Positions 1-32,864 are shown, counted from the stretch's first letter. The stretch is DNA of 32,864 nt from Candidatus Thermosaccharophagus tengchongensis (GCA_032161105.1 JAVHTD010000028.1), one strand, 5' to 3'. Program-made: numbers and translations. The notes: generated from the letters alone by a model not told the origin.

Positions 1-1782
1 AAGGTTTACGAGGTGACGGAACAGAAGTTGTGTCCTGGAAGTTACGATTTCACATGGGATGGGACTATGAACACTGGCAATTACGAAGGAATGCCTGATG
101 GGGAAGAGCCAACAAACATAGCACCTGCAGGTTTATACACCTTTGATGTTGAAGTGACAGGAGTTGCCCCTTATGACCATGATTGGTTAAGGAGCAAGGA
201 ATTGAAGGTTGTTCCAGGACCTGTTGAGTATTGCGGTCGTGATGATGGAGGGACACCTGATGATGAGAGTGATGACAACTACCTTTACTACTTGAGATGG
301 TATGCATTGCATAGCGGAAGGGATGCGACATGGGGAGAAATATGGTTGTATGACCCTGATTTGATGAGGGTATCAACATGTGCTGTTCCGATATTAAAAT
401 GTGTTGTTCATGGATGGAATGATGGGTTGGTAGCGAACCCGAATGGTGAAGTTCATGGTGTTATAATCCCAGTTCCAGTGAGTGTGATGGATAAGGTAGG
501 GACATACAGGTTTGTTTTGCACTTTTATGATGACTATGCTGACGGTTACAAGAACCATAAAGTAAAACCTGCTTTGGAGGTGAATGCAAAGTACGATAAT
601 CCATTAATTGAATTCGTGCGTCAAGATGGTGATTGGCAATCCCAAGTCTTTGTTCGTATCGACCATGTCCATATTGCCCTTTGGGAAAACTCTTTTGACG
701 CTAACAACATGGTCAGGCAATTCTTTACCCGATATGATGACCGTCGTTTCTTTGTTAAGGTCACCGACAAATCCCAAAATAGACCTGGAGTGTTGCACCT
801 TCATTCTTTCAAACGTGGCGCTAATCCCAAAACGAGCAATCCCGATGACCAAATCAACAATATGAGTTTCCATTCGGATTTTAGCAAACCCAACGAAGGC
901 ATTTTCATCACCCGTCCTTTGATAGCGGTTGTAGACAATGACATCATTGATGATGACTTTGACGATGACCCTTCAGGTCAGAACACTGAATATGATGGCA
1001 CAGATGACGGAAGTGATGACCGAACGATATGGGCAGAGTTAGAAGGGGTATTAAGGGCGAAATATTATCGTGGCGGGAAATTGGTAGCAGAAAGGCAAGT
1101 TACAGTGTGCACTAGGCAGCACCGGAGGTTGGTAAGATTGAACATTATATCCATGAGAAGCCGAACGAATAATCAACCTTATTGGACAAAACAGGAGATT
1201 TTAAGGGAGATAAGGAGGTTAGAGGGTGAGATAAATAGCGGTCGTGCGAATAAGGCATGGGCACAGGCGTGCATCCGGTTTGTGAACAGAAATGGACAGG
1301 AAATCACGGAAGCAGACATTCATGAAAGAGACCAACCGCAAGGGGTTAACCTTGACGACCAACATGGACTCGATGATTTCACACAAGATCCCTCTGGTAA
1401 TATACAAGAAACCGATGAGGAGAGAGCTCTTATCAGCGCAGTCAAAGATAATGACGATTTAACAATAGATGTCATTTTCATAAATCGCATGCGGTCTGGA
1501 TCTCGGGGAGAAGCTTTCAACGATGTCTATACCGTTGCTCCTAACGCAGATCCAAACCACAGGAGAACAATCATAATTGCATTAAATCGGACACCATTCA
1601 CGACACCACATGAAATCGGTCACATTCTCTTGAATAGTGGTCACTTCCAGTCGCCAGATATTAATGAGGAATACAGAAACTTAATGAGGTCGGGGACTTC
1701 TGATACAGACGCCGTCAATGAATCTAAGAGACTTACAACAAGTCAAATCGACACAGCACGGCAAAGCCCATTAATGCAATAG
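1..1782 (+). CDS. 5'-partial putative polymorphic effector/toxin: FlgD-Ig-like N-terminal region plus C-terminal zinc metalloprotease-like domain
   Basis: The frame is open from base 1 (KVYEV...), so the true start lies upstream of the window. 'FTWDGT...APAGLYTFDVEV' resembles an FlgD-type Ig domain. The junction motif HKVKPALEVNAK is shared with the ORF at 2703. HEIGHILLNSGH (1609-1644) and a downstream NLM (1678-1686) resemble a metzincin zinc motif and Met-turn. Confidence 0.75.
   Translation, partial: KVYEVTEQKLCPGSYDFTWDGTMNTGNYEGMPDGEEPTNIAPAGLYTFDVEVTGVAPYDHDWLRSKELKVVPGPVEYCGRDDGGTPDDESDDNYLYYLRWYALHSGRDATWGEIWLYDPDLMRVSTCAVPILKCVVHGWNDGLVANPNGEVHGVIIPVPVSVMDKVGTYRFVLHFYDDYADGYKNHKVKPALEVNAKYDNPLIEFVRQDGDWQSQVFVRIDHVHIALWENSFDANNMVRQFFTRYDDRRFFVKVTDKSQNRPGVLHLHSFKRGANPKTSNPDDQINNMSFHSDFSKPNEGIFITRPLIAVVDNDIIDDDFDDDPSGQNTEYDGTDDGSDDRTIWAELEGVLRAKYYRGGKLVAERQVTVCTRQHRRLVRLNIISMRSRTNNQPYWTKQEILREIRRLEGEINSGRANKAWAQACIRFVNRNGQEITEADIHERDQPQGVNLDDQHGLDDFTQDPSGNIQETDEERALISAVKDNDDLTIDVIFINRMRSGSRGEAFNDVYTVAPNADPNHRRTIIIALNRTPFTTPHEIGHILLNSGHFQSPDINEEYRNLMRSGTSDTDAVNESKRLTTSQIDTARQSPLMQ
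454..592 (+). repeat. Direct repeat copy 1 (conserved junction preceding the variable C-terminal domain)
   Basis: Gap-free alignment to 2736-2874 (offset 2282). 27/46 aa identical. 554-592 vs 2836-2874 is 37/39 nt identical and 486-507 vs 2768-2789 is 21/22 nt identical. Confidence 0.9.
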
Positions 1783-1794
1783 GGGGATTAAACT

Positions 1795-2618
1795 GTGAGG
1801 ATAATAACAGTCAAGGCGTTAGCCATTACATTGATGCTTGCCACCGTCGCAGCGACGACGGTATCGTTGGAGGTGAGTAATTTGGACAAAAGAAAAATTA
1901 TGCAACTGCTCTCTGCCGAAGAGTTTAAGAACAGGGAGCGCTTAGAATTACTCAGGATGGGTGAGCGAGCGAAAATTGTGTTACGGGACATCATCAGAGA
2001 AAATAAGCCCCCTTCTACCTTGTAGAGCGAGCGGTCATCGTTTTAGGTGAAGTCTTTCGTGACCGTGCTTCGGTAGATTTGATCCGTCCTTTGCTCAAGC
2101 ATCCAAACTCAGACATACGGGCGGGGGCGGCAAGAGCATTGCGATACATCGGCGACGAGAGCGACCTGCCCACGCTGTTGCAATTGCTTCAGGATGAGGA
2201 AACATTCGTCAAATTCTCGGCAATGGAGGCGCTCAGTTACATCGGCAGTCCCAAAGCCCTTCCAGCACTGAGGCAAGCGTTTGCCAAGTTTCATCCCTAC
2301 TCGCGTCCATTGGTGGAACGTGCCATTAGGCGCATCGAGATTTGGAACTCCCCCCGGCGCAACGAGGAATTACAAACTGCCATCCTAAGCGAAGACAAGG
2401 AACTTGCCTGCTGGGCGGTTCAAAAGATTGCCCAGTTAGGCTTAAAGGAAGCCTTACCTACCTTAAGGAAAGCTCTTGAGAGTGTGCGACCAGCTTATGG
2501 GGCTGATAGATTGCGGATGGAAATGGAAATACTTAGTGCCATCAAGAAGTTAGGTGGTACACTGTCATCAGAAGAAATCGAGAAGTTAGAGGAATTTCCG
2601 CCTGAGACGCTGCGGTGA
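1795..2618 (+). pseudogene. Exported HEAT-repeat protein (candidate immunity/partner), split by a 1-nt frameshift or sequencing error
   Basis: GTG start with a GGGGGA RBS 12 nt after the ORF1 stop, and a signal-peptide-like N-terminus (MRIITVKALAITLMLATVAA). HEAT-like repeats (IRAGAARALRYIG, VKFSAMEALSYIG). Adding one C to the C5 run at 2008-2012 joins 1795..2025 to 2079..2618 through ...KPPFYLVERAVIVLGEVFRDRASVDLIRPLL, giving ~274 aa. Confidence 0.8.
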
Positions 2619-2702
2619 TCTGGTGGGTAGGTTAAGGAGATAGCCTTTGGCGTAAGGTGGTATAGATTTTAGGGAGTTTGTTTTGTTCATTGGAGCACAA
2701 TT

Positions 2703-3998
2703 GTGTTGGTTTGGTGGCAAGTTTGTGGAGTAAAGTATGGCGTTCTATTGCCCGTTCCTATTACTTTGATGGATAAGGAAGGGACATACTATTTTGTCAT
2801 CTTTGCATGGGACAATCATGCTCACTTACACAAAGACCATAAAGTCAAACCTGCTTTGGAGATGAATGCAAAGTGGAGAAAATGGCAAATTACAGATGTC
2901 GGCTTTTATTATGACCTTAACGGTAATGGTAACCCTTACGAAGACCAAGAGAAACTCAAATGGGACGGCAACGACCCAAGTAACCCCCAACGTGGAGAAT
3001 TCACTATCTTGCGGCAACAACCAGAAGGCAATGTCCTTTTCATCCTTGCTCACATCTCCTCTCCTGACCCGCCCCCTTCCAACGCAAAGGTGGTTGTCAT
3101 GTTAAAGACATCTGTGACTGATCAAAAAGGGATTAAAGTGACCCTTCATTACAGTGGGGCATGTCCTCAAGGGAATGGCTATCACTTCCATAAACCTTAT
3201 GGGCAAGAGATAAAGATGGTTAAACCACCTGAGCAAAGCATAGATGATATTCAAATCCAAGTTCACATGAGTGGGGACAACACGGCGGAAGTTACGACTT
3301 ATGACCACGCTATTTCTCCTACTTCAAATTATCTGGATTCTGCAGCGATAGAGGTAGGTTTGACCGATCGTCAGAGGAGGGGGAGGGCAAGGGACAGTAA
3401 TTGGGAGATGAAGACGCCGACCCTGCCAACCCTCCTTCGTTTCATCCAAGCAGCAGGGGTGGAGAAGATAAAAGTCTATGACCCTCATAAACCATCGGTG
3501 AACCATGAATTACCGGTTAAAAACCAAGCGGACATTTTGTATTACAGCGGGCACGGGAGTAGAGAAACAGGTGAGCTAATAAGCGTGTTTGACAGCGGGG
3601 GAACTATCCATCCTTCGGAGATTAACGCCGCCATCAACTGGGGAGAAGATTTGGAATATTTCATCATTTCAGCATGTGGAGTGCTTGACCCTGACTCCAA
3701 AGGCATTTCATACTGGGCAAAACCTATCGTCAAAAATGGACCTCTAAAGGGACTAACAGGCTACTACGGCTCAGCGCCACGAGATATTCCACCTCCTGGT
3801 AAGCCCTCCTCTGTTGAAGTTGCTGATAGGTTCGTTACTAACCTTAACTCTAATCCATCCTATGACTTTGATACCGGTGACTCGGTGTTAAACGCTTGGC
3901 TGGAGTCTAATGCATATTACCAGCTGCCTGCCGTTGCATATACTAAGACATCCGTTTGGTGGGTAGTAGAAGCATTTGAAGGGTGGTGGGGGTCATGA
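2703..3998 (+). CDS. Orphan C-terminal cassette: junction stub plus DUF6345-like caspase-fold (His-Cys) domain; probably lacks a functional start
   Basis: Begins with a ~46-aa homolog of the ORF1 junction. 'ADILYYSGHG' (His 3552) and 'WGEDLEYFIISACGVL' (Cys 3675) match the caspase-hemoglobinase/DUF6345 pattern. No convincing RBS before the GTG at 2703 or the ATGs at 2769 and 2862. Confidence 0.7.
   Translation: MLVWWQVCGVKYGVLLPVPITLMDKEGTYYFVIFAWDNHAHLHKDHKVKPALEMNAKWRKWQITDVGFYYDLNGNGNPYEDQEKLKWDGNDPSNPQRGEFTILRQQPEGNVLFILAHISSPDPPPSNAKVVVMLKTSVTDQKGIKVTLHYSGACPQGNGYHFHKPYGQEIKMVKPPEQSIDDIQIQVHMSGDNTAEVTTYDHAISPTSNYLDSAAIEVGLTDRQRRGRARDSNWEMKTPTLPTLLRFIQAAGVEKIKVYDPHKPSVNHELPVKNQADILYYSGHGSRETGELISVFDSGGTIHPSEINAAINWGEDLEYFIISACGVLDPDSKGISYWAKPIVKNGPLKGLTGYYGSAPRDIPPPGKPSSVEVADRFVTNLNSNPSYDFDTGDSVLNAWLESNAYYQLPAVAYTKTSVWWVVEAFEGWWGS
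2736..2874 (+). repeat. Direct repeat copy 2 (junction stub of the orphan cassette)
   Basis: Homologous to 454-592. Similarity stops abruptly after AATGCAAAGT. Confidence 0.9.
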
Positions 3999-4037
3999 AG
4001 AAGAAGCAGCAGAACTATTAACATAATCCTGAGGTGA

Positions 4038-5147
4038 ATGACAATGATGCGTTCCTTTGTCCTAAAACGGTTTGTGGCAAGCCTTTTTGTCCTTCCACCT
4101 ATAGTAGTTTGCGCAGTGATAGGTCTTATAGCTCTTAAGAATGGTGGTGAAACAGTCGCCAAAGTCTTTGAAGCACCAAGAGGTTCTCGTTTCACTATTT
4201 TGTATCCATCTTCTGATGGACAGAAGGTTTGGGCTATGTTTGTTAGCGTCTCAAGAACTCAAGATTCCTCGGACGCAATTTTCTCGGTTATCCAACCAGT
4301 TATAGCTTTGGATGCCTTCTCCCATGCCATTATCAATCGAGTCAACATTAATGTATCAAATCCTTGGTCATCGTTTATTGGATTGGCACGTGGCATTTCT
4401 GCTGATATCTTTCCTCTTGTGGAACAGTTTCGTAATTGGGTGATTGATAAAGATGGCAAGGTAATATATGGAGTGGTGTCAAGTCACTTATGGGATGAGC
4501 CACCCTCGGATGATTCTGTCATCAAAGCTATTGAAGTTACATCCCGTAAGCAACTTTGGGAGAGGGCGATACCCAAAGTAAGTGCTCTTGCACTTTCCTC
4601 TGAGAGGCATCAACTTTGGGTAGCCTCTGACCAGCCGATCCTGGTTAAAGATATTGAAACTTTGCCTCGTGATTTTCCAAAATTTTATTATATGGATGAA
4701 GCACGAGTGATATATGTGATAGATACTCGGGATGGAGCTATACTAAAGCGCATCGGTTACATTAGTGGAGATGGTGCCGATAGCATAGTGTTCTCGCCCG
4801 ATATGAAGAGAGCTATCTGCATTGCCCGTGGTGGGCTAGGTGGGCTGTTGGTCATAGATGCTGAACGCCTTGAGATTGAAGAGGGATGGTGCGAGTTGCG
4901 ATTCAGCATGTTCTCACGGGGCATGGATGGATGTTGGAGTCAAGATGGAAAATATCTTTACATCTTGGATCGTGGCTTTGACAGTCCTCCATCTGTTCAA
5001 GTTTATGAAGTTCCGAGGAAATCGCTTATTGGCAAGATTACTTTACCTACGAAAAGTCCAGCCCGAACAATGGTGTTATCTAATCCAGCTAATAAGTTGT
5101 TCATTGGTGCTGATGATGGCATCTATGTTGTGAACCTCGCTAAATAG
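4038..5147 (+). CDS. Exported or membrane-anchored beta-propeller-like (YVTN/YncE-like) protein, candidate partner of the orphan cassette
   Basis: 369-aa ORF with a GAGGTG RBS (true start may be 4044 or 4047). Hydrophobic N-terminal segment. Blade-like repeats: SIVFSPDMKRAI, WSQDGKYLYI, IYVIDTRDG, IYVVNL. Confidence 0.65.
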   Translation: MTMMRSFVLKRFVASLFVLPPIVVCAVIGLIALKNGGETVAKVFEAPRGSRFTILYPSSDGQKVWAMFVSVSRTQDSSDAIFSVIQPVIALDAFSHAIINRVNINVSNPWSSFIGLARGISADIFPLVEQFRNWVIDKDGKVIYGVVSSHLWDEPPSDDSVIKAIEVTSRKQLWERAIPKVSALALSSERHQLWVASDQPILVKDIETLPRDFPKFYYMDEARVIYVIDTRDGAILKRIGYISGDGADSIVFSPDMKRAICIARGGLGGLLVIDAERLEIEEGWCELRFSMFSRGMDGCWSQDGKYLYILDRGFDSPPSVQVYEVPRKSLIGKITLPTKSPARTMVLSNPANKLFIGADDGIYVVNLAK

Positions 5148-5271: not shown

Positions 5272-6204
5272 CTATTCCTGCCAGGTGGAGAACTGTTGTG
5301 TCTGCTCAAGCAGCGGCTTGAGTTGGCTCTCAATTTCATCCTCATCTTCGCCCACATGTATGCCCTTGAATAGGAACCAATGCTCAACATGCTCAATGCA
5401 TTCACCATGCTCAATGCGCTTTAGCGGGCTGAGCGTTTCAAGTTCAAGCATCCTCTCGTTGGTGAAGACCTCAGCGGAGCACCCGAAATCCGGGTATGGC
5501 ATTCCATCAAAGTGCTTGTGCCGCTTGATGAATAGATGTCCGTTGCGCGCATATGCTAACCAGCCCTCGTGATTTGCTACGCCAAGCTTTAGCGGCTTAG
5601 CATTGTTCACATCCTGACGAAGGATGATGAACTTCCTTCCCCAGCGCCACCTTGAATCGCTCATATCCGTGTAATGCCAGATTGCCATTGCCCTTGCTGG
5701 AAGCAACTTCTCCTCGTGCGGTATGAATGGAGGCTGTGGTAGTATAGCCCTTCCGCCCGGTGCCATGACTGAGAGCGCCCACGCAGCAAGTTCAACAGAC
5801 CAAAGGTTGAAATTGCGCAGCCTGTGGATAACCACCACATGTGTCCCGCCTTGTGGGAGCTCTATTTGCATTTCCTTCTGTATCCCGGTGAGCCTCTCAA
5901 CTGGCTGCACGGCGAGGAGGGAGTTGTCTTTTGCGCTTACATCAACCGGCTCATTGTCTGGTGCATATGTTCTTGGGCGTGCTTCTGGAGCATGCCAAAG
6001 CCTATGTCCTCCGTAGATACGCCACTCATCACCGCCCCTCAATCCGAGCTGCTCTTCAAATTCGGCGAACTCATTCTCATCACCGATGAACCCGAAGCGG
6101 ATAATCCTCGGACCGACATCCGCCGTCACTATTAGCTCAACATCGTCATTGAACAGCCTGTAGCAATTTTCCCATCCGCCATAGCTCACCCTCTCCGTTG
6201 GCAT
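5272..6204 (-). CDS. DUF4380-like / galactose mutarotase-like fold protein
   Basis: 310 aa. Motifs VGPRIIRFG, YGGHRLWHAPE, YPDFGCSAEVF and ELETLSPL are typical of this conserved hypothetical family. GGGGTGA RBS. Confidence 0.7.
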   Translation of the reverse strand: MPTERVSYGGWENCYRLFNDDVELIVTADVGPRIIRFGFIGDENEFAEFEEQLGLRGGDEWRIYGGHRLWHAPEARPRTYAPDNEPVDVSAKDNSLLAVQPVERLTGIQKEMQIELPQGGTHVVVIHRLRNFNLWSVELAAWALSVMAPGGRAILPQPPFIPHEEKLLPARAMAIWHYTDMSDSRWRWGRKFIILRQDVNNAKPLKLGVANHEGWLAYARNGHLFIKRHKHFDGMPYPDFGCSAEVFTNERMLELETLSPLKRIEHGECIEHVEHWFLFKGIHVGEDEDEIESQLKPLLEQTQQFSTWQE

Positions 6205-7284: not shown

Positions 7285-7537
7285 TCTACCCCCTGTAAGG
7301 ATGCAAACGCACCGGTGAGTTTGACAGCCTTATGCGACTTGTGTGGCGGCAAATTGGTGCTCCCCAAAGGAGCATTTCGTCTCCTCATAACCCTTTGACT
7401 AACCTTCTTCACCGTCGGCGCGTTGGGAAGCGCTTAGACAGCGATTAGCCTCTGCGAGGCAGTGTTGAAGTGGTGCGCTAATATTGCTGGCGAGCGGCAA
7501 AAGCGATTCCGTTGGAACATCATCGGGGGTGATGAAA

Positions 7538-8548
7538 ATGTCGTCATCTGATGAGGGAAAAGGGAGGGCAAAGGTGCGCGTTGCAGTGATCGGGTGCGGT
7601 GCGCATGCCAATTCCGTTCACTATCCATCGCTCACCGAGCTTGAAGATGTTGAGCTTGTTGGTGTGTGCGACCTTATCCCGGAGAGGCTTCATTCAACTG
7701 CCGACAAGTTTGGCATTGATGGGCGCTTCACCGATTACAAGAAGATGATTGAGCAAACTGCACCAGAAGCCGTCTATGTCATCATGCCACCGCATCAACT
7801 GTTTGATATCGTCGTGCATTGCCTTAGGCAGAAGTTGCATGTGTTCATTGAGAAGCCTCCGGGGGTGTATTCCGAGCAAACGCGCAACATGGCTAAGCTC
7901 GCCGAACGCAACGGGTGTTTGACCATGGTCGGGTTTAACAGGCGCTTCATACCGCTTCTCAGGTTGCTCAAGCGCTTTGTGGGAGAGAGGGGACAGATGC
8001 AACAATGCGTAGCCACCTTCTACAAGCACCATGTGGGTGGCGAACCATACTACGGTGGTGCTGTGGACATACTCACATGCGACGCCATACATGCAGTTGA
8101 TTCGCTCAGGTGGATGGCTGGCAGCGAAGCCAAAAATGTGGTGAGCAGCGTGAGGGCTGTGGCATGCGATTTCCCCGATAGCTTCAATGCGCTCATTGAA
8201 TTTGAAAATGGCTGTGTCGGTGTGCTGTTGGCAAACTGGGCTGCCGGCAAGAGGGTGCACACATTTGAGATGCACGGCATAGGGATATCGGCTTTTGCCA
8301 ATCCGGATCCGGATGGCGAGGGTGTGGTTTATGCAGAGAACGGCAAGTTCGTTAAGCGCATCACGCCACAGGAAGCAGCTATGAGCAATCAATGGCATAG
8401 GGTCTACGGCTTTTACGATGAGAATAAGCATTTCATTGACTGCATCAAATCTGGGACATTACCGCAGACGCATTTTGGCGATGCCGTCAAGACGATGGAG
8501 CTCGTTGATGCGATTTATCGCAACCGAATTTCACAGGCGATAATTTGA
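7538..8548 (+). CDS. Gfo/Idh/MocA family oxidoreductase
   Basis: VAVIGCG Rossmann motif, HVFIEKP, VGFNRRF and IHAVD. Start placed at ATG 7538 after a GGGGGTGA RBS. Confidence 0.92.
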   Translation: MSSSDEGKGRAKVRVAVIGCGAHANSVHYPSLTELEDVELVGVCDLIPERLHSTADKFGIDGRFTDYKKMIEQTAPEAVYVIMPPHQLFDIVVHCLRQKLHVFIEKPPGVYSEQTRNMAKLAERNGCLTMVGFNRRFIPLLRLLKRFVGERGQMQQCVATFYKHHVGGEPYYGGAVDILTCDAIHAVDSLRWMAGSEAKNVVSSVRAVACDFPDSFNALIEFENGCVGVLLANWAAGKRVHTFEMHGIGISAFANPDPDGEGVVYAENGKFVKRITPQEAAMSNQWHRVYGFYDENKHFIDCIKSGTLPQTHFGDAVKTMELVDAIYRNRISQAII

Positions 8549-12990: not shown

Positions 12991-13884
12991 GTGGAAGTGC
13001 TCAATGCCATTTTTGCTGCGGCGCTTATCATGCTCATCGCCATCGCGAGCTTGGGCTGCGGGAGAAGGGACATCGTTGCAAGTGTTGACGGGGAGGCAAT
13101 TTACAGGGATGAGTTTGAGGTTGAGTTGCTGAAAAGGGCAGGTGAACATGTGCTTAGGGAGATCATCACCGAGAGGCTCATAAGGCGCGAGGCTGAGAGG
13201 AAGGGCATTTCCGTTAGCCGCTCAGAAGTGGATGCCGAAATTAAACGCAGGCAATTGAGGCAAGGTGACAAGGCAAGTTTGGAGGAGTTGAAGCGTGAAG
13301 TTGAGCTCAGTTTGTTGCTGAGGAAGTTGTGCATGAGCGACCCGCAAGCCATGCCGAGCACGCATGAGGTCATCAGCTATTACGAGAGTCACAAGGATGA
13401 GTTCACAATCCCTGAGAGGGTGAAGCTGCGCTGCATCGTCGCTGATGATTTGAGCAGCGCCATGAGCATATACGATGCTGTGATGCGCGCCAAAGATAGC
13501 TTTGCCGAATTGGCTTGCGAGTTGTCCGTTGATGAGGCGACTAAGGACAAGGGCGGAGATATGGGCGTTTTAATTGTGCGCAATCTTTCGCCGAAGCTGC
13601 GCGCCGCAGTTGAAGGGATGAGTGTCGGCGATGTGAGCAAGCCGTTTGAGCTTGATGGGCGTTGGTGGATAATCAAACTTGAGGGGCGCATGCCAGCACG
13701 ACAACAATCAATTGATGATGTGCGCGTGATGATATCGCAAATGCTGCGCGAGCAGAAGGCACAGGCGTTGCAACCGATTTACATACGCAGGCTATGGGAG
13801 AGGGCTCGCGTGGAAGTATACATTCCAGAGCTCAGCAAGCGCATCTTGGGAAATCGCTCACGGGTTGGAGGGCACGCAAGGTAA
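12991..13884 (+). CDS. PrsA/SurA-like parvulin peptidyl-prolyl isomerase, probable lipoprotein
   Basis: Lipobox-like IASLGC, VASVDGEAI, YYESHKDEF and FAELACELSVDEATKDKGGDMG. Start is probably GTG 12991 or 12997. Confidence 0.85.
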   Translation: MEVLNAIFAAALIMLIAIASLGCGRRDIVASVDGEAIYRDEFEVELLKRAGEHVLREIITERLIRREAERKGISVSRSEVDAEIKRRQLRQGDKASLEELKREVELSLLLRKLCMSDPQAMPSTHEVISYYESHKDEFTIPERVKLRCIVADDLSSAMSIYDAVMRAKDSFAELACELSVDEATKDKGGDMGVLIVRNLSPKLRAAVEGMSVGDVSKPFELDGRWWIIKLEGRMPARQQSIDDVRVMISQMLREQKAQALQPIYIRRLWERARVEVYIPELSKRILGNRSRVGGHAR

Positions 13885-13964
13885 TGGGTGTGGAGGATAA
13901 CCCAGCTGATGAATTGTCCAATGGCGGGTGCCATGTCTCCCCCCAAAATGCGTGGTGATGGGAT

Positions 13965-14303
13965 GTGAGCGATGAGCGCTCGTCAGGCGAACTTACGCCA
14001 GAGGAGCTTGAAGCGCAAATTGAGAGGTTAATTGATGAGGTTCTCGGTGGGGAGCCGAGGGCGGAGCAGTGGCGTGAATGGCGTCAGGCGCTTGAAAAGC
14101 GATTGAAGCATTTGCGAGAGATGCGCTCAAAGGGCATCAATGAGTTTGAGAACATGGACGAGGTCATACGGGACATTGAGGAGAAGGTGAGGGTATTGCG
14201 TGAGGAGGAAATCATCACTGAGTTCGTTGAGCAGCAGGTGAGGGCGATCATTGGCAAACTTAGGCTGCAAAGGAGGCTTGGCGAGGAAATTGAGCTCATT
14301 TGA
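13965..14303 (+). CDS. Hypothetical helical/coiled-coil protein
   Basis: 112-aa ORF with a GGTGA RBS, Glu/Arg-rich helical composition and coding-like bias. Co-oriented with the upstream operon. Confidence 0.7.
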   Translation: MSDERSSGELTPEELEAQIERLIDEVLGGEPRAEQWREWRQALEKRLKHLREMRSKGINEFENMDEVIRDIEEKVRVLREEEIITEFVEQQVRAIIGKLRLQRRLGEEIELI

Positions 14304-14352
14304 GCGGCGCTTCTTCGCCGTCCATCTTCGTTACGACTTTGAATGGGAGGCG

Positions 14353-14904
14353 CTAATCTGGACGTTCAGTTGAGATATCTGTTTCTTCGCTCGTGGAAGC
14401 AATCTCACGCTCAAGCTCTTCACGGCTGTTTGAGATGATCTCCCTCAACTTGTTCACAGTCTGCTCAAGCTTGTTCAAGACCTTCAACGCATACTCAAGC
14501 GCTTCACTTCTCCTCCTTGATGCCTCTTCACTGGCTCGCCTGCGCTTCTCATCAGCCATTTGCTCAGCTCGCCTGAGCAACTCGTCAGCCTTCTGCTCGG
14601 CTGATTTCATTATCTCGCTCTCCGCGACTTTTCTCTCAGCCTCACGCTGTGCACGCTCAAGTATGCGCTGTCTCTCCTCCTCGGCTTCACGAACGATTCT
14701 TTCTGCCTCCTCCTGTGCGGCTCGTATGCGCTTATCGCGCTCTCTAACGATCTCTTCAGCCATGCGCAACTCGCTTGGCAGGGCAACTTCAATCCTCCTG
14801 AGCAGCACCGATATCTTTTGCTCGTCAACTAAGCGCCAGTGTCCAAACCCTTTGCTCCGCTCTATTTGCGTTTCAAGTTCCTTGAGCAGATTTCGGATTT
14901 GCAT
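14353..14904 (-). CDS. Coiled-coil protein of the family usually found downstream of coaD (SepIVA/DivIVA-like, often annotated as ATPase subunit-like)
   Basis: LPSELRMAEEIVRERDKRIRAAQEEAERIV pattern. ATG 14904 is 1 nt after the coaD stop. Conserved rsmD-coaD-X order. Confidence 0.75.
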   Translation of the reverse strand: MQIRNLLKELETQIERSKGFGHWRLVDEQKISVLLRRIEVALPSELRMAEEIVRERDKRIRAAQEEAERIVREAEEERQRILERAQREAERKVAESEIMKSAEQKADELLRRAEQMADEKRRRASEEASRRRSEALEYALKVLNKLEQTVNKLREIISNSREELEREIASTSEETDISTERPD

Positions 14905-29537: not shown

Positions 29538-29571
29538 GGAGTAAGGTTGGCAGCGGCAAGGAGTGAAACTC

Positions 29572-32500
29572 ATGCGCTACATGAGGCATCTCATCGGGGC
29601 TTTCCTTCAGCAACTTGCGGTCTTGATTGGGTTGGGATGGCTTGTTGTCGGCGTTGCAATGCTGGTGATGAGTGAACATCCGAAGGCATCTCTAAGCGGC
29701 TCCGCTGTAAGTTCCGTCACAGGCAAGCCAATACCCAAAGCCTTCGTCAGGCTGCGCCTCGTGAAATCGTTGGACGGTAAAGGCTGCAGGGCATTTTTCA
29801 CACGGTGCAATGAGCATGGTGAGTTTTCATTCCGCTCAATACCAGCGGGAGTTTACGAGATTGAGGCTCACACATTGGCGCACTCGCTATCTCCAACTCA
29901 GCTTGAACTCAAAGAGGGTGCCGAGGAGAAAGTCACACTTGAGCTGTCACCGAGGGAGCCATGGATTCATTTCATATTGCCACAACGCACATTCATATGG
30001 GCTGAGCCGGTGCGCATCAAAGTGACCGGATTTGTGCTTGAGGATGAGATGACGCTGCGCTTGTGCGAAATTGACGCACAGAGCTTGCTCGCCTCCGGGA
30101 GGCGTGAAATGTTAGAGCAGATAATTGCACCATGGGAGAGCAGAGGCTGTGATGCCACATTGAGGGAGTTCCTAAACCGCTATAGCGGGGGTGTCCTCAT
30201 AAGCGATGTGCCGATAACTGGGCGTGATAGCGAGGGCATCTTCACGCAATATGTGGATGTGCCAGTCAAGCACAGCGGGATTTACCTCGTTGAATTATCG
30301 GCAGGCAAAGTGGAAGCCTTTACAAGCATCATCGTCACAAACATAGGGGCACTGGTCAAATGGGGTGGAGGGAGGGCTTTAGTTTATGTTTGTGACTTGC
30401 GGAGTGGCGCACCACTCCCCGGCGCAAGGGTGTTTGGCGCAGGCGGAGCAAATATGGGATTGAAGTTGCTCGGTGTCACCGGCAAGGATGGTGTGGCGCT
30501 CATTGATGCGAATAAACTCACCGATGAATCAGAGGCAACACTGTTCGTGAACTTTGATGGACAGTTATGCGTTGTAGGCTTCTATGGCGGCATGAGCTTG
30601 TCCCACAAATACAAGGTGCACATCTACACTGACCGCCCCGTGTATCGTCCCGGCGATGTCGTTTACTTCAAGGGGATTGTGAGGTTGCAAAGTGCCAATG
30701 GTTACATTGTTCCGAAGGCGACAAATGTTGAGCTTGAGTTTCGTGACCCGCGTGGGCACAGGATTTGGTCTGATGCGGCGCGCACAAACTCATTTGGAAC
30801 TTTTCACGGAAGCCTCGCTCTGCCACAGGAAATAGCCACTGGCGATGCTACAATTGCGGCGGCAATTGACGGCGAGCAGCATGAGTGCACGGTGAAAATT
30901 GCATCGTATCGGAAGCCGGAATTCACGGTCAAAGTGAAAGCGAAGCGAAAGGAGTATCTCCCAAACGAAGTTGCGCATGTTGACATTGAGGCTCAATACT
31001 ACTTTGGCGTGCCGGTAAGGGGTGCAAAAGTGCAATATGTCGTGCACCAAGTTGAGATGCCGGAGTGTGAGATGGTTGAGGGCGATAGCGCCGATGAAGG
31101 ATGGTGCGAGTGGGAAGAAGGTTATGGGAGCGAAGTGGCATCTGGGGAAACGGTGACCGATGGGAATGGCAGGGCAAGGATAAGCTTCAAGATGCTGTAT
31201 CCGAAGGAGTTGGCCCATGTCGCCATAAGCGGCGCAGGTGAAAAGGTGCAAGTTGTCAAGCCGGTGACATATCGCCATCTCGTTCGCATAAGCGTGACTG
31301 ACATTGGGCAGCGGGAAGTTGTGCAGGAGATTTCTTTGAATCTTCATCCGGCATCGCTTCGCCTGTCCATTGAGCCTCAAAGTCATCTTGTGAGTCCGAA
31401 TGAGCCTGTCAGAGTGAGCTTCAAAGTGACCGATTTGAGCGGTAAGCCAGTAAGCAGGGCGAGGATAGAAGCCGCGTTTGGGGAAGTGGTGTGGGAGTCA
31501 GATGAAAAGGGCAATTGGAGCTCATACCTTAAGCCGGTTAAAAGCATAACGCTGACCACATCGCAATTCGGCACCGCCACTTGCTCCGTCAAGCCAACGA
31601 GTGAAGGTGAGTGGTGCGTATACGCCATTGTTGAGGACGAAATGGGTTGGCGTAACGCCGATTCGGAATACATTTATGCTTGTGGCGGCGTGTTGTCGTT
31701 GCCGGCTGGTCGTATGGAGTCTGAGATAGAGCTTGTGCCGGCGAAGGATTCGTTTGCGGTTGGAGAGAGTGCAAGGGTATTGCTTCGCTCCGGGAAAAGG
31801 GATGCACATGTGCTCGTTACAGTTGAGGCAGAGCGTGTTTACCGCCATTGGGTCGTCAGGCTTGATGGGAAGCCGAAGTTAATTGAGTTTGATGTGCAAT
31901 GCAATTACATCCCCGGCGTTTGGATATGCGCGGCGCTTGTGGAATCAAAAAAGCTCTCCGAGGCGAAGGCGTTCATCGGCGTCTCAAGGGCTGCGAAGGA
32001 ATTGAAAGTCAGCTTACATCCGAGCAAGAGTCAATGTGCGCCGGGTGAGAGCATTGAATGGACTATTAAGGTGACAGACGAATCAGGTGAGCCAGTTAGA
32101 GCCGAGCTTTCGCTATCAGTTGTGGACGAGGCTATCTATGCGATAAAGGATGAGCCGTTGGATGAGTTAGTGAGGGCATTCTATGGGCGGAAGCAACATG
32201 AAGTTATGACGATTTGCTCTTTCCCCGAGCTATACATGCAGGCGAACAAAGCCGGTATAGCAAGCATACGGAAGCACTTCCCCGACACCGCATTTTGGGC
32301 GCCGTCACTTTACACCGATGAGAACGGCACAGCGCGCGTCAATGTGAAAATGCCGGATGCGATTACTACATGGCGAGCCACAGTCAAAGCGGTAACTGTG
32401 GATACATCACTCGGTGCTGCGCTCAGCAGGGTCATCGTAAATAAGCCATTGATGGTGCGCTTGCAGCTGCCACGCTTCCTCGTTGAGGGCGATGAAGTGA

Positions 32501-32864
32501 GCATTGTTGGTTTAGTCCACAACGAATCTGACCAGCGAAAGGATTTAACAGTGCGCCTATCATGCGATGGGTTGAATGTTGACGGCGATAATAAATGCCA
32601 TGTGGTGGTGAGACCGCATGGCGTTGCAAAACTTGCATGGAAAGCGAAGGCAACAAAGCATGGTTGTGCGAAGATCACCCTCAGTGCGGTGTCAAACGAC
32701 GGCTGCAGCGATGCCGTCCAAAGGCAATTGCAAGTGCTGCCGCTCGCTGTCCCATACACATTCACGAAGTCAGGTAGGTTAAATGCCGGTGAGACAAAGA
32801 GGCTCTCCCTTTTCATCCCAAGCGATGTGGTGAGGGATGTCGGTGAGCTCAAGATATTGCTTTC
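29572..32864 (+). CDS. Alpha-2-macroglobulin family protein, 3'-partial, with an N-terminal carboxypeptidase-regulatory-like domain
   Basis: ATG 29572 follows AAGGAGTGA and the frame appears open to the window end. MG2 motif YTDRPVYRPGDVVYFKG (~30625), YRKPEF, YYFGVPV, VDEAIY and RKHFPDTAFW...MPDAITTW. Absent from the ORF track, presumably because there is no stop in the window. Confidence 0.92.
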   Translation, partial: MRYMRHLIGAFLQQLAVLIGLGWLVVGVAMLVMSEHPKASLSGSAVSSVTGKPIPKAFVRLRLVKSLDGKGCRAFFTRCNEHGEFSFRSIPAGVYEIEAHTLAHSLSPTQLELKEGAEEKVTLELSPREPWIHFILPQRTFIWAEPVRIKVTGFVLEDEMTLRLCEIDAQSLLASGRREMLEQIIAPWESRGCDATLREFLNRYSGGVLISDVPITGRDSEGIFTQYVDVPVKHSGIYLVELSAGKVEAFTSIIVTNIGALVKWGGGRALVYVCDLRSGAPLPGARVFGAGGANMGLKLLGVTGKDGVALIDANKLTDESEATLFVNFDGQLCVVGFYGGMSLSHKYKVHIYTDRPVYRPGDVVYFKGIVRLQSANGYIVPKATNVELEFRDPRGHRIWSDAARTNSFGTFHGSLALPQEIATGDATIAAAIDGEQHECTVKIASYRKPEFTVKVKAKRKEYLPNEVAHVDIEAQYYFGVPVRGAKVQYVVHQVEMPECEMVEGDSADEGWCEWEEGYGSEVASGETVTDGNGRARISFKMLYPKELAHVAISGAGEKVQVVKPVTYRHLVRISVTDIGQREVVQEISLNLHPASLRLSIEPQSHLVSPNEPVRVSFKVTDLSGKPVSRARIEAAFGEVVWESDEKGNWSSYLKPVKSITLTTSQFGTATCSVKPTSEGEWCVYAIVEDEMGWRNADSEYIYACGGVLSLPAGRMESEIELVPAKDSFAVGESARVLLRSGKRDAHVLVTVEAERVYRHWVVRLDGKPKLIEFDVQCNYIPGVWICAALVESKKLSEAKAFIGVSRAAKELKVSLHPSKSQCAPGESIEWTIKVTDESGEPVRAELSLSVVDEAIYAIKDEPLDELVRAFYGRKQHEVMTICSFPELYMQANKAGIASIRKHFPDTAFWAPSLYTDENGTARVNVKMPDAITTWRATVKAVTVDTSLGAALSRVIVNKPLMVRLQLPRFLVEGDEVSIVGLVHNESDQRKDLTVRLSCDGLNVDGDNKCHVVVRPHGVAKLAWKAKATKHGCAKITLSAVSNDGCSDAVQRQLQVLPLAVPYTFTKSGRLNAGETKRLSLFIPSDVVRDVGELKILL

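Follow-up and report, generated by a model that had tools for sequence, protein, structure and literature searches.

The question raised by the first 5,147 nucleotides (nt) of a 32,864-nt stretch of DNA from Candidatus Thermosaccharophagus tengchongensis (GCA_032161105.1 JAVHTD010000028.1; the whole stretch is referred to here as the window) is what kind of system is formed by two genes that share a short protein segment and then end in unrelated domains, each of them followed by a different gene. The initial annotation of this locus proposed a polymorphic effector/immunity system, in which a common carrier bears exchangeable C-terminal tips (CTs). This reading is largely supported: the locus is probably the downstream end of a Sec-dependent polymorphic effector/immunity island, built on a new carrier, in a hot-spring bacterium of the Fervidibacteria (Armatimonadota), and from its organization we infer toxicity, immunity and delivery. 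The polymorphic toxin concept is itself already known; it is the carrier class that is new. Polymorphic toxin systems shape strain-level competition, and new carrier classes have each revealed new delivery logic. As far as searched, the present class is confined to the Fervidibacteria, a lineage of thermophilic Armatimonadota without described interbacterial weapons. Its carrier and junction domain are unannotated, its tips appear to be aimed at the cell envelope, and the corresponding antidotes appear to be exported.

Layout of the locus and the shared junction

The window begins at base 1 of its contig (C28 of genome G000), which leaves the 5' end of the first open reading frame (ORF), ORF1, open. 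The features of the locus are as follows.

1-1782, + strand: ORF1, 593 amino acids (aa), 5' end cut at the contig start
1-555, + strand: 3' part of the carrier N-region, with the end of the FlgD-Ig-like domain and then most of the ~130-aa pre-junction ("pre-toxin") domain
556-591, + strand: junction motif of ORF1, HKVKPALEVNAK, the last conserved residues ahead of the variable tip
592-1782, + strand: tip 1 (CT1), a beta-rich prodomain-like half and a predicted metzincin-type zinc-protease half, with HEIGH at 1609-1623
1795-2025, + strand: N-terminal piece of partner 1, 76 aa, with a signal-peptide-like segment and the first helices
2008-2012, + strand: run of five C residues at which the partner-1 frame is broken in this assembly, as found by frame comparison
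2079-2618, + strand: C-terminal piece of partner 1, 179 aa, with HEAT repeats (Pfam HEAT_2)
2673-2873, + strand: orphan stub of ORF3, the last ~50 aa of the pre-junction domain with a second junction type (YYFVIFAWDNHAHLHKDHKVKPALEMNAK)
2703-3998, + strand: ORF3, 431 aa
2874-3998, + strand: tip 2 (CT2), a DUF6345-family domain with YYSGHG (His at 3552-3554) and Cys at 3675-3677
4038-5147, + strand: ORF4, which is partner 2, 369 aa, with an N-terminal membrane anchor or signal segment and a probable beta-propeller

The ORF map agrees with the order originally proposed, in which the CT1 gene, its partner, a stub joined to CT2 and a second partner follow one another on one strand. The two CT-bearing ORFs were also said to share only the segment ahead of the CT and to diverge afterwards, and this is borne out by the comparison of both proteins and DNA. 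The sole local similarity between them lies between aa 134-198 of ORF1 and the ORF3 stub (28/50 aa, 56% identity over 50 aa; tblastn E 1e-11); as DNA, the shared segment is 74% identical over 138 nt and ends in HKVKPALE(V/M)NAK. The last 39 nt up to the junction are identical at 37 positions (P of at least 37/39 given a 70% background, 1.4e-4), and successive 39-nt blocks past the junction are identical at 17/39, 12/39 and 9/39 positions, which is the random level.

ORF3 has no signal peptide and no N-region upstream. Its stub matches positions 28-77 of the 77 positions in a hidden Markov model (HMM) of the pre-junction domain (E 1.4e-21), and its junction type is also found on carriers of 1279-1303 aa in two relatives (G008 and G016). 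Since the window holds the last 195 aa of the conserved N-region only, ORF1 may be either a main gene or an orphan with a long stub. With two full-length relatives as queries, the carrier's first ~240 aa were not found in the same genome outside contig C28, and no recognizable carrier start was found at the start of contig C39, which was expected to face the gap. A promoter and terminator scan of the locus gave no signal above shuffled sequences.

Tip exchange and co-variation of partners

A census with the pre-junction HMM over the window and 30 loci gave 40 matches, 37 of which reach the junction, and revealed many loci that combine a shared junction with diverse tips, each with its own following gene. 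The possibility that homologs always carry one and the same tip is contradicted by BLAST clustering of post-junction tips of at least 100 aa: 102 tips (73 from database proteins and 29 from the loci and the window) fell into 18 clusters behind one junction HMM. Precomputed Pfam families on the tips include NlpC/P60, NAGPA, Peptidase_M54, DUF6345, Peptidase_C39_2 and DUF7689, and the tips in relatives are mostly NlpC/P60-like, amidase-like, M54-like, C39-like and NAGPA-like hydrolases.

Orphan cassettes can form arrays. On one contig (G023:C212), seven ORFs with a junction lie on the same strand; their stubs are 10-132 aa long, the tip differs each time, and each tip is followed by another gene. 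The stub DNA of this array is 86-94% identical over the 180 nt ahead of the junction and 26-33% identical after it (56% in one related pair). In another relative (G008:C29), a main gene of 1279 aa is accompanied by three orphans. As a separate observation on the array of seven, one NlpC/P60-type tip is split there into two overlapping ORFs.

Co-variation was assessed in cassettes with a tip of at least 100 aa and a downstream gene of at least 150 aa, after removal of two cassettes whose "partner" proved to be the second half of a tip split by a frameshift. The resulting 25 cassettes comprise 14 tip clusters and 13 partner clusters and give 300 pairs, with both members homologous in 15, the tip only in 6, the partner only in 9 and neither in 270. 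Homologous tips are therefore followed by homologous partners in 15/21 pairs, as against 9/279 among the other pairs; the downstream genes do co-vary with the CT. Both pairs of the window also recur elsewhere. The ORF3/ORF4 pair is found in G008:C29 (tip 66% and partner 23% identical; partner E 5.6e-9), and the pair of tip 1 and its HEAT-repeat partner is found on metagenome contig L069 (tip 81% and partner 55-61% identical), where another carrier stub lies downstream. In both recurring pairs, the partner diverges faster than the tip.

The tip-2 family stands behind at least three junction variants, YYFV..HKDHKVKPALEMNA, YRFVLHFYDDY..KDHQVKPALEINS and YLFLVHAVDDH..HRRKPALPLNA, and its presence behind different variants indicates that exchange occurs at the junction, which is, as judged from these sequences, a real exchange point.

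Elsewhere in the genome, a degenerate junction stub without a tip, KGHKVKPHLEVNE, occurs in two copies that are 98.9% identical over 261 nt (C31:1440-1800 and C6:1-261; loci L003 and L004). These stubs contain a 1-nt indel and are followed by DNA of non-coding appearance. The C31 copy lies directly 3' of a gene of 417 aa, whose product has a hydrophobic segment at its N-terminus and falls into no family in Pfam or NCBIfam. The two stubs are probably the ends of further effector islands broken by assembly.

Carrier, tips and partners

The description of the carrier as FlgD-Ig-like fails in ORF1 itself, where the FlgD_ig match of 16.3 bits is below the Pfam cut-off of 27, and stands for its family: the domain passes the cut-off in one relative (28.5 bits) and appears in the precomputed annotation of 20 of the 77 homologs. 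Relatives of the ORF1 N-region occur in 18 of 61 related genomes, the present genome included, and belong to a few families of one phylum. The N-region matches 77 database proteins, and the named ones come from Candidatus Fervidibacter or Armatimonadota, apart from four possibly mis-binned exceptions, hot-spring bins assigned to Aquificaceae (three) and Bathyarchaeia (one). A scan of 185,579 species genomes for two peptide patterns, which gives a lower bound on the taxonomic range, yielded seven credible loci (E <= 9e-28), six of them in Fervidibacter, Fervidibacterota, Armatimonadota or Thermosaccharophagus bins and one on a 4.7-kilobase (kb) contig of a Thermocrinis bin. Three more matches in the same scan (E 2e-4), with 15-19 acidic residues, are probably spurious.

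In full-length carriers, a signal-peptide-like N-terminus is followed by beta-rich sequence (~430 aa) that contains a FlgD_ig match, and the tip, 200-470 aa long, comes after the junction. Carriers of a second type, ~1300 aa in length, differ in their N-terminal part, which contains a Big_1 domain, and have the same pre-junction domain. The two types share this ~130-aa domain only, so that it can be taken as their common denominator. The domain ends in K(N/D)HxVKxALExNA, and C134, H137, H152, D177, H186 and K189 (ORF1 numbering) are near-invariant among 67 distinct sequences, with H186 and K189 each present in 65/67.

The proposal that the carrier fits no named scaffold was confirmed. Neither the carrier nor the pre-junction domain matches a toxin scaffold in Pfam or NCBIfam, including those of CdiA, Rhs, MafB and LXG, and the pre-junction profile has no match among PDB sequences either. 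ORF1 and four full-length or long carriers gave no Pfam or NCBIfam match to two-partner secretion (TPS) domains, filamentous hemagglutinin (FHA) repeats, VENN or YD/RHS, and MAFB-N (DUF1020) has no match in the full-length carriers L019:4127-6076 and L020:2970-6809. An Atlas search with one full-length relative returned FlgD_ig-type leads at 0.85 and structural template modelling (TM) scores of at most 0.33, and nothing more. It is conceivable, if rather doubtful, that the pre-junction domain is an active metal-dependent or autoproteolytic release or translocation module that cuts at KPALExNA; such a module would let Sec-exported effectors pass from one diderm cell into another by a new route that needs no dedicated machinery.

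A further feature of carriers was seen in relatives. Seven carrier genes contain a (CT)n-rich tract of variable length, GGCT[CT]5-14GGAG, between an upstream ATG and the part that encodes the signal peptide (L019:7584-7640, L018:3511-3560, L032:3201, L042:2401 and L008:814; on the - strand, as oriented positions, L021 ~3005 and L038 ~4720). The nearest ATG is in frame in 2/7 of them, and three have no in-frame ATG, GTG or TTG ahead of the signal peptide. The tract, located between start codon and signal peptide, might switch carrier expression on and off; it could reflect slippage-based phase variation, a need for frameshifting, or copies that have been silenced.

Both tips had been taken for proteases of different catalytic classes, a view that the fold and the HExxH motif uphold for tip 1 and that for tip 2 goes as far as its motifs and a borderline DUF6345 match carry it. 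The HExxH of tip 1 (H342, E343, H346) does not vary among 33 sequences, and the same is true of one Asp and one Arg. Its AlphaFold2 (AF2) model (predicted local distance difference test, pLDDT, 90.5; predicted TM score, pTM, 0.90) has profragilysin-3 as its best Foldseek match (E 3e-5), with ~300 aligned columns that extend over the prodomain and the catalytic domain, and the catalytic domains of adamalysin, ADAM and ADAMTS follow; for fragilysin, adamalysins and ADAMTS the Foldseek probability is 1.00. The TM score is 0.56-0.59 when normalized to targets that consist of the catalytic domain only and 0.30-0.35 over the whole chain. The sequence profile, compared with PDB, finds fragilysin (Bft; E 4e-4). 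Tip 1 is thus modelled as a metzincin-like zinc protease with a prodomain-like half. It resembles profragilysin-3 and the adamalysin/ADAM metzincins (PDB 7pol, 3p24, 1iag) in the combination of prodomain, catalytic domain and HExxH, whereas identity to them is 10-16%, and its candidate third-ligand region, HEIGHILLNSGH, departs from the classical HExxHxxGxxH in that the spacing to the third His is one residue longer, with a conserved NLM behind. Also unlike those enzymes, tip 1 is fused behind a carrier and has a HEAT-repeat partner next to it.

With window 586-1779 as the query, 197 relatives of tip 1 were found at E <= 1e-3 in 1.84 billion representatives, and most of them are C-terminal modules of secreted proteins. 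The N-terminal parts, scanned in 30 of these proteins, comprise beta-helix, Calx-beta, PKD, fn3, GH25+CBM, PG_binding+OmpA and LTD domains; some homologs carry GH25 lysozyme, PG_binding_1 or OmpA domains. Tip 1 is present in 1/24 genomes of the order.

Tip 2 has 28 relatives, and UniRef gives one of them the name "Gingipain domain-containing". In 22 aligned sequences, YYSGHG and a Cys further downstream (H284, G285, C325) are invariant. The window's own tip 2 scores 26.8 bits against DUF6345 (PF19872), just short of the cut-off of 26.9; DUF6345 matches 20 of the 22 members at E<=1 (best 2.6e-8), and Peptidase_C25 matches 2/22 weakly (E 0.012). The tip-2 profile found no meaningful match among PDB sequences. 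These motifs suggest that tip 2 is probably a clan-CD-like cysteine peptidase.

A parallel to the tip-1 cassette was noticed in G008:C29, where the main carrier of 1279 aa has a weak Peptidase_M10-like tip with HEIGH, followed by two HEAT-repeat genes (L020:6755-7519 and 7486-8184). Alignment of tip 1 with this metalloprotease-like tip by hhalign covers 27 columns around HExxH only (probability 48%), and the HEAT-repeat partners of the two loci are barely similar (E 0.001). The parallel of a metalloprotease tip with a HEAT-repeat partner is suggestive only.

As regards the partners, partner 1 had been described as one exported protein. Its N-terminal hydrophobic segment is present (hydrophobicity 2.14), and the single ORF is not: a frameshift at the C-run 2008-2012 separates ORFs of 76 and 179 aa in different frames. 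The two pieces are collinear with one intact protein of 277 aa on contig L069, the 76-aa piece being 55% identical to its residues 12-77 and the 179-aa piece 61% identical to residues 99-276, and the C-terminal piece matches Pfam HEAT_2 (E 1.9e-20). In contigs of runs X2 and X3, which come from two other studies, one extra C behind position 2007 places partner 1 in a single frame. These comparisons identify partner 1 as a single signal-peptide-bearing HEAT-repeat gene whose frame is broken here. For partner 2, the exported appearance was confirmed by an N-terminal hydrophobic segment in ORF4 (hydrophobicity 2.76 at residue 16). Atlas feature matches of ORF4 are to WD40/PQQ/BamB-like clusters at 0.93, which is a lead only, and its fold is probably a beta-propeller. 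Across the cassettes, 21/25 partners have an N-terminal hydrophobic segment; that of the window's partner-1 N-terminal piece is additional to the 21.

Proposed function, rival explanations and behavior of the island

In the proposed mechanism, the effector would be exported by Sec into the periplasm of the producer, where the cognate membrane-anchored or periplasmic partner would neutralize it. Once released, the effector would act on competitors without this partner and attack the peptidoglycan or the proteins of their envelope. Stubs would allow homologous recombination to swap a new tip and its partner onto an expressed carrier; in the present locus, ORF3/ORF4 would be a silent orphan cassette, and ORF1 either the expressed gene or a long-stub orphan.

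Several known systems share parts of this organization. In CdiA-CT/CdiI and Rhs-CT/RhsI, a conserved junction motif marks the variable tip, orphan modules keep a stub of the sequence ahead of the tip, and the content varies by strain. The present loci likewise have a junction motif, stub-bearing orphans that would permit recombination, and content that varies by strain, but they have no TPS, FHA or YD repeats, VENN or PxxxxDPxGL, CdiB or type VI secretion system (T6SS); their junction is KPALExNA, and their carriers are short (~650 or ~1300 aa). In colicin M/Cmi and pesticin/Pim, a C-terminal enzyme attacks the envelope and the immunity protein, exported or anchored, faces the periplasm; these bacteriocins have no signal peptide and are released by lysis, and orphan arrays are atypical of colicins. 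The modular design, the C-terminal envelope enzyme and the periplasm-facing immunity protein (here as predicted by sequence alone) are common to both, whereas the present carrier has a signal peptide and orphan arrays, and a receptor-binding/translocation part is known only for the bacteriocins. Peptidoglycan hydrolase tips with periplasmic immunity recall the Tae/Tai effectors of T6SS, from which the present system differs in export by a Sec signal peptide; a T6SS sheath gene was not found in this genome. As in MafB/MafI of Neisseria, there is a signal peptide only, with no dedicated secretion domain, and a variable C-terminal toxin has its immunity gene directly downstream, with alternative tip/immunity cassettes nearby. 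Unlike MafB, the carrier here lacks MAFB-N/DUF1020, as well as every other listed N-terminal domain; in their place it combines beta domains of the FlgD-Ig-like kind with a ~130-aa pre-junction domain of its own. In addition, the tips are mostly envelope-acting hydrolases, the partners are exported, and the host belongs to a hyperthermophilic Armatimonadota lineage.

Among polymorphic toxins, Zhang et al. 2012 already list a signal-peptide-only "T2SS/Sec-dependent" class (T2SS, type II secretion system), with which the present carriers share the lack of a dedicated secretion domain, as well as HEAT-repeat immunity proteins and tips of the NlpC/P60, C39 and caspase-like types, the Tox-NLPC/P60 tips being comparable to the peptidoglycan hydrolase tips found here (PMC3482391). 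A literature search, with supplements outside its range, found no link between Fervidibacter and toxins or between polymorphic toxins and FlgD, and no description of DUF6345. A search for polymorphic toxins in Armatimonadota found nothing beyond a single mention, and no description of the carrier.

The locus behaves as an island. Its GC content is 0.44-0.48 at 1-5000, compared with 0.50-0.55 in the remaining window, and the genes downstream of it are housekeeping genes. The flanking gene at 5272-6204 has orthologs in 3/3 sister species, where it adjoins a conserved gene of ~640 aa and efflux genes; the island is absent from the equivalent site in all three, with no junction match there. The sister-species neighbors of the flanking gene lie on contig C39, whose start faces the assembly gap. 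In three other hot-spring data sets (runs X2, X3 and X7), depth was 40, 6.9 and ~2 for the tip-1 cassette, 200, 141 and 479 for the tip-2 cassette, and 318, 282 and ~760 for the flank, per-contig values that serve as a rough guide only; contigs from the same data sets contain alternative joints at the junction. In run X7, window 937-2574 is without contig cover, a gap that means no data rather than absence. In the probable source run, one contig of 2635 bases has a copy of the junction at each side.

A number of observations weigh against a functioning polymorphic effector/immunity system. A 13-nt deletion (window 1454-1466) in X2, X3 and X7 stops tip 1 ~5 codons later, before HEIGH, and X2 and X3 also have an additional G at 1781. 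Tip 1 is thus intact and its partner frameshifted here, and elsewhere the reverse holds (tip 1 truncated in X2, X3 and X7, partner intact in X2 and X3); this reciprocal breakage between populations means that the tip-1 cassette may be decaying or unexpressed. There is no linked secretion or translocation gene, the genes upstream of four main carriers being unrelated housekeeping genes, and TssC, the T6SS sheath gene, was not found in this 97%-complete genome, which leaves exit from a diderm producer and entry into a diderm target unexplained. The genome contains four secretin genes. The tip-1 homologs scanned (30 proteins) have no Rhs, CdiA or LXG scaffold and have adhesin-like or carbohydrate-binding scaffolds instead, and tip 1 has a prodomain-like half, as do ordinary secreted zymogen proteases. 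The AF2 model of ORF3, from a 22-sequence alignment, has a pLDDT of 52.8, with less than 50 in the catalytic stretch of tip 2. Co-variation has exceptions, namely the 6 tip-only pairs, from two NlpC/P60 subgroups with different partners, and the 9 partner-only pairs. All data on relatives come from metagenome bins, where repeats interrupt contigs or may join them wrongly, and the HMM was built from 13 sequences of loci that were later scanned, which makes the scan partly circular. Finally, the array of seven (L017, 14.7 kb) has the same cassette sequence at both ends (3-611 and 13591-14629), which may be a tandem or circular assembly artifact or a true duplication.

The diderm envelope of the class was seen by cryo-electron microscopy in F. 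sacchari, in a study that also describes Fervidibacter as degrading polymers with many secreted enzymes (PMC11535203). That lifestyle agrees with the rival explanation that survives best, itself rather unlikely, in which the proteins are a diversified set of secreted degradative enzymes (proteases and cell-wall hydrolases) with which the bacterium would feed on mat protein or dead cells; a cognate inhibitor or chaperone in the periplasm would shield the producer from each enzyme while it is exported. The locus would then be a product of modular enzyme evolution and not of interbacterial warfare. The resemblance of tip 1 to a zymogen protease with its own prodomain, the homologs in which it is a C-terminal module beside carbohydrate-binding, fn3, PKD and Calx-beta domains, and the lack of linked delivery machinery are all in keeping with this explanation. 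However, truncated orphan cassettes without a signal peptide would be unexpected of working paralogs, as would stub DNA at 86-94% identity beside unrelated tips, one-to-one co-variation of tip and partner, and strain-level presence and absence. By analogy with described systems, orphan cassettes, stub identity, co-variation and strain variation are hallmarks of polymorphic toxin loci.

It is quite improbable that the window copy is a decaying, non-functional island remnant with pseudogenized cassettes and no present function in this strain. The frameshift in partner 1, the missing signal peptide and N-region of ORF3, a 5' end of ORF1 that is assembled nowhere in the genome, the two degenerate tipless stubs on contigs C31 and C6, and the truncating deletion in tip 1 of other populations would all fit a remnant. 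Yet long frames stay open in ORF1, ORF3 and ORF4 (593, 431 and 369 aa), the catalytic motifs are intact, and a single-base frameshift in a homopolymer at ~9.6x contig depth may be an assembly error; in polymorphic systems, moreover, silent orphans are the normal state. Cassettes of a lysis or tail-fiber type, borne by a phage or mobile element and without relation to interbacterial toxins, are barely credible, for despite the low GC content, the island-like insertion and the cell-wall hydrolase tips, neither the 32.8-kb window nor the examined flanks of relatives (housekeeping) contain genes for phage proteins, integrases or transposases, and both the Sec signal peptides of the carriers and the export of the partners speak against them.

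With Fervidibacter sacchari now in cultivation, the family is testable. It would also constitute a catalog of thermostable proteases and hydrolases of peptidoglycan, together with the inhibitors that match them, and the loci, which break the assemblies of hot-spring metagenomes, can be used there to mark strain diversity.

Two further observations concern the surroundings of the island. A paralog of the flanking gene 5272-6204 (36% identity), with one in-frame TGA, is found at C11:58519-59478 (L064) of the same genome, and SelB was seen in a relative. A large alpha-2-macroglobulin-type protein (MG2, A2M_BRD and A2M domains) is encoded at 29563-32862 and continues past the far end of the window; proteins of this type are broad protease traps, and this one is encoded in the same genome as the protease-tipped effectors.

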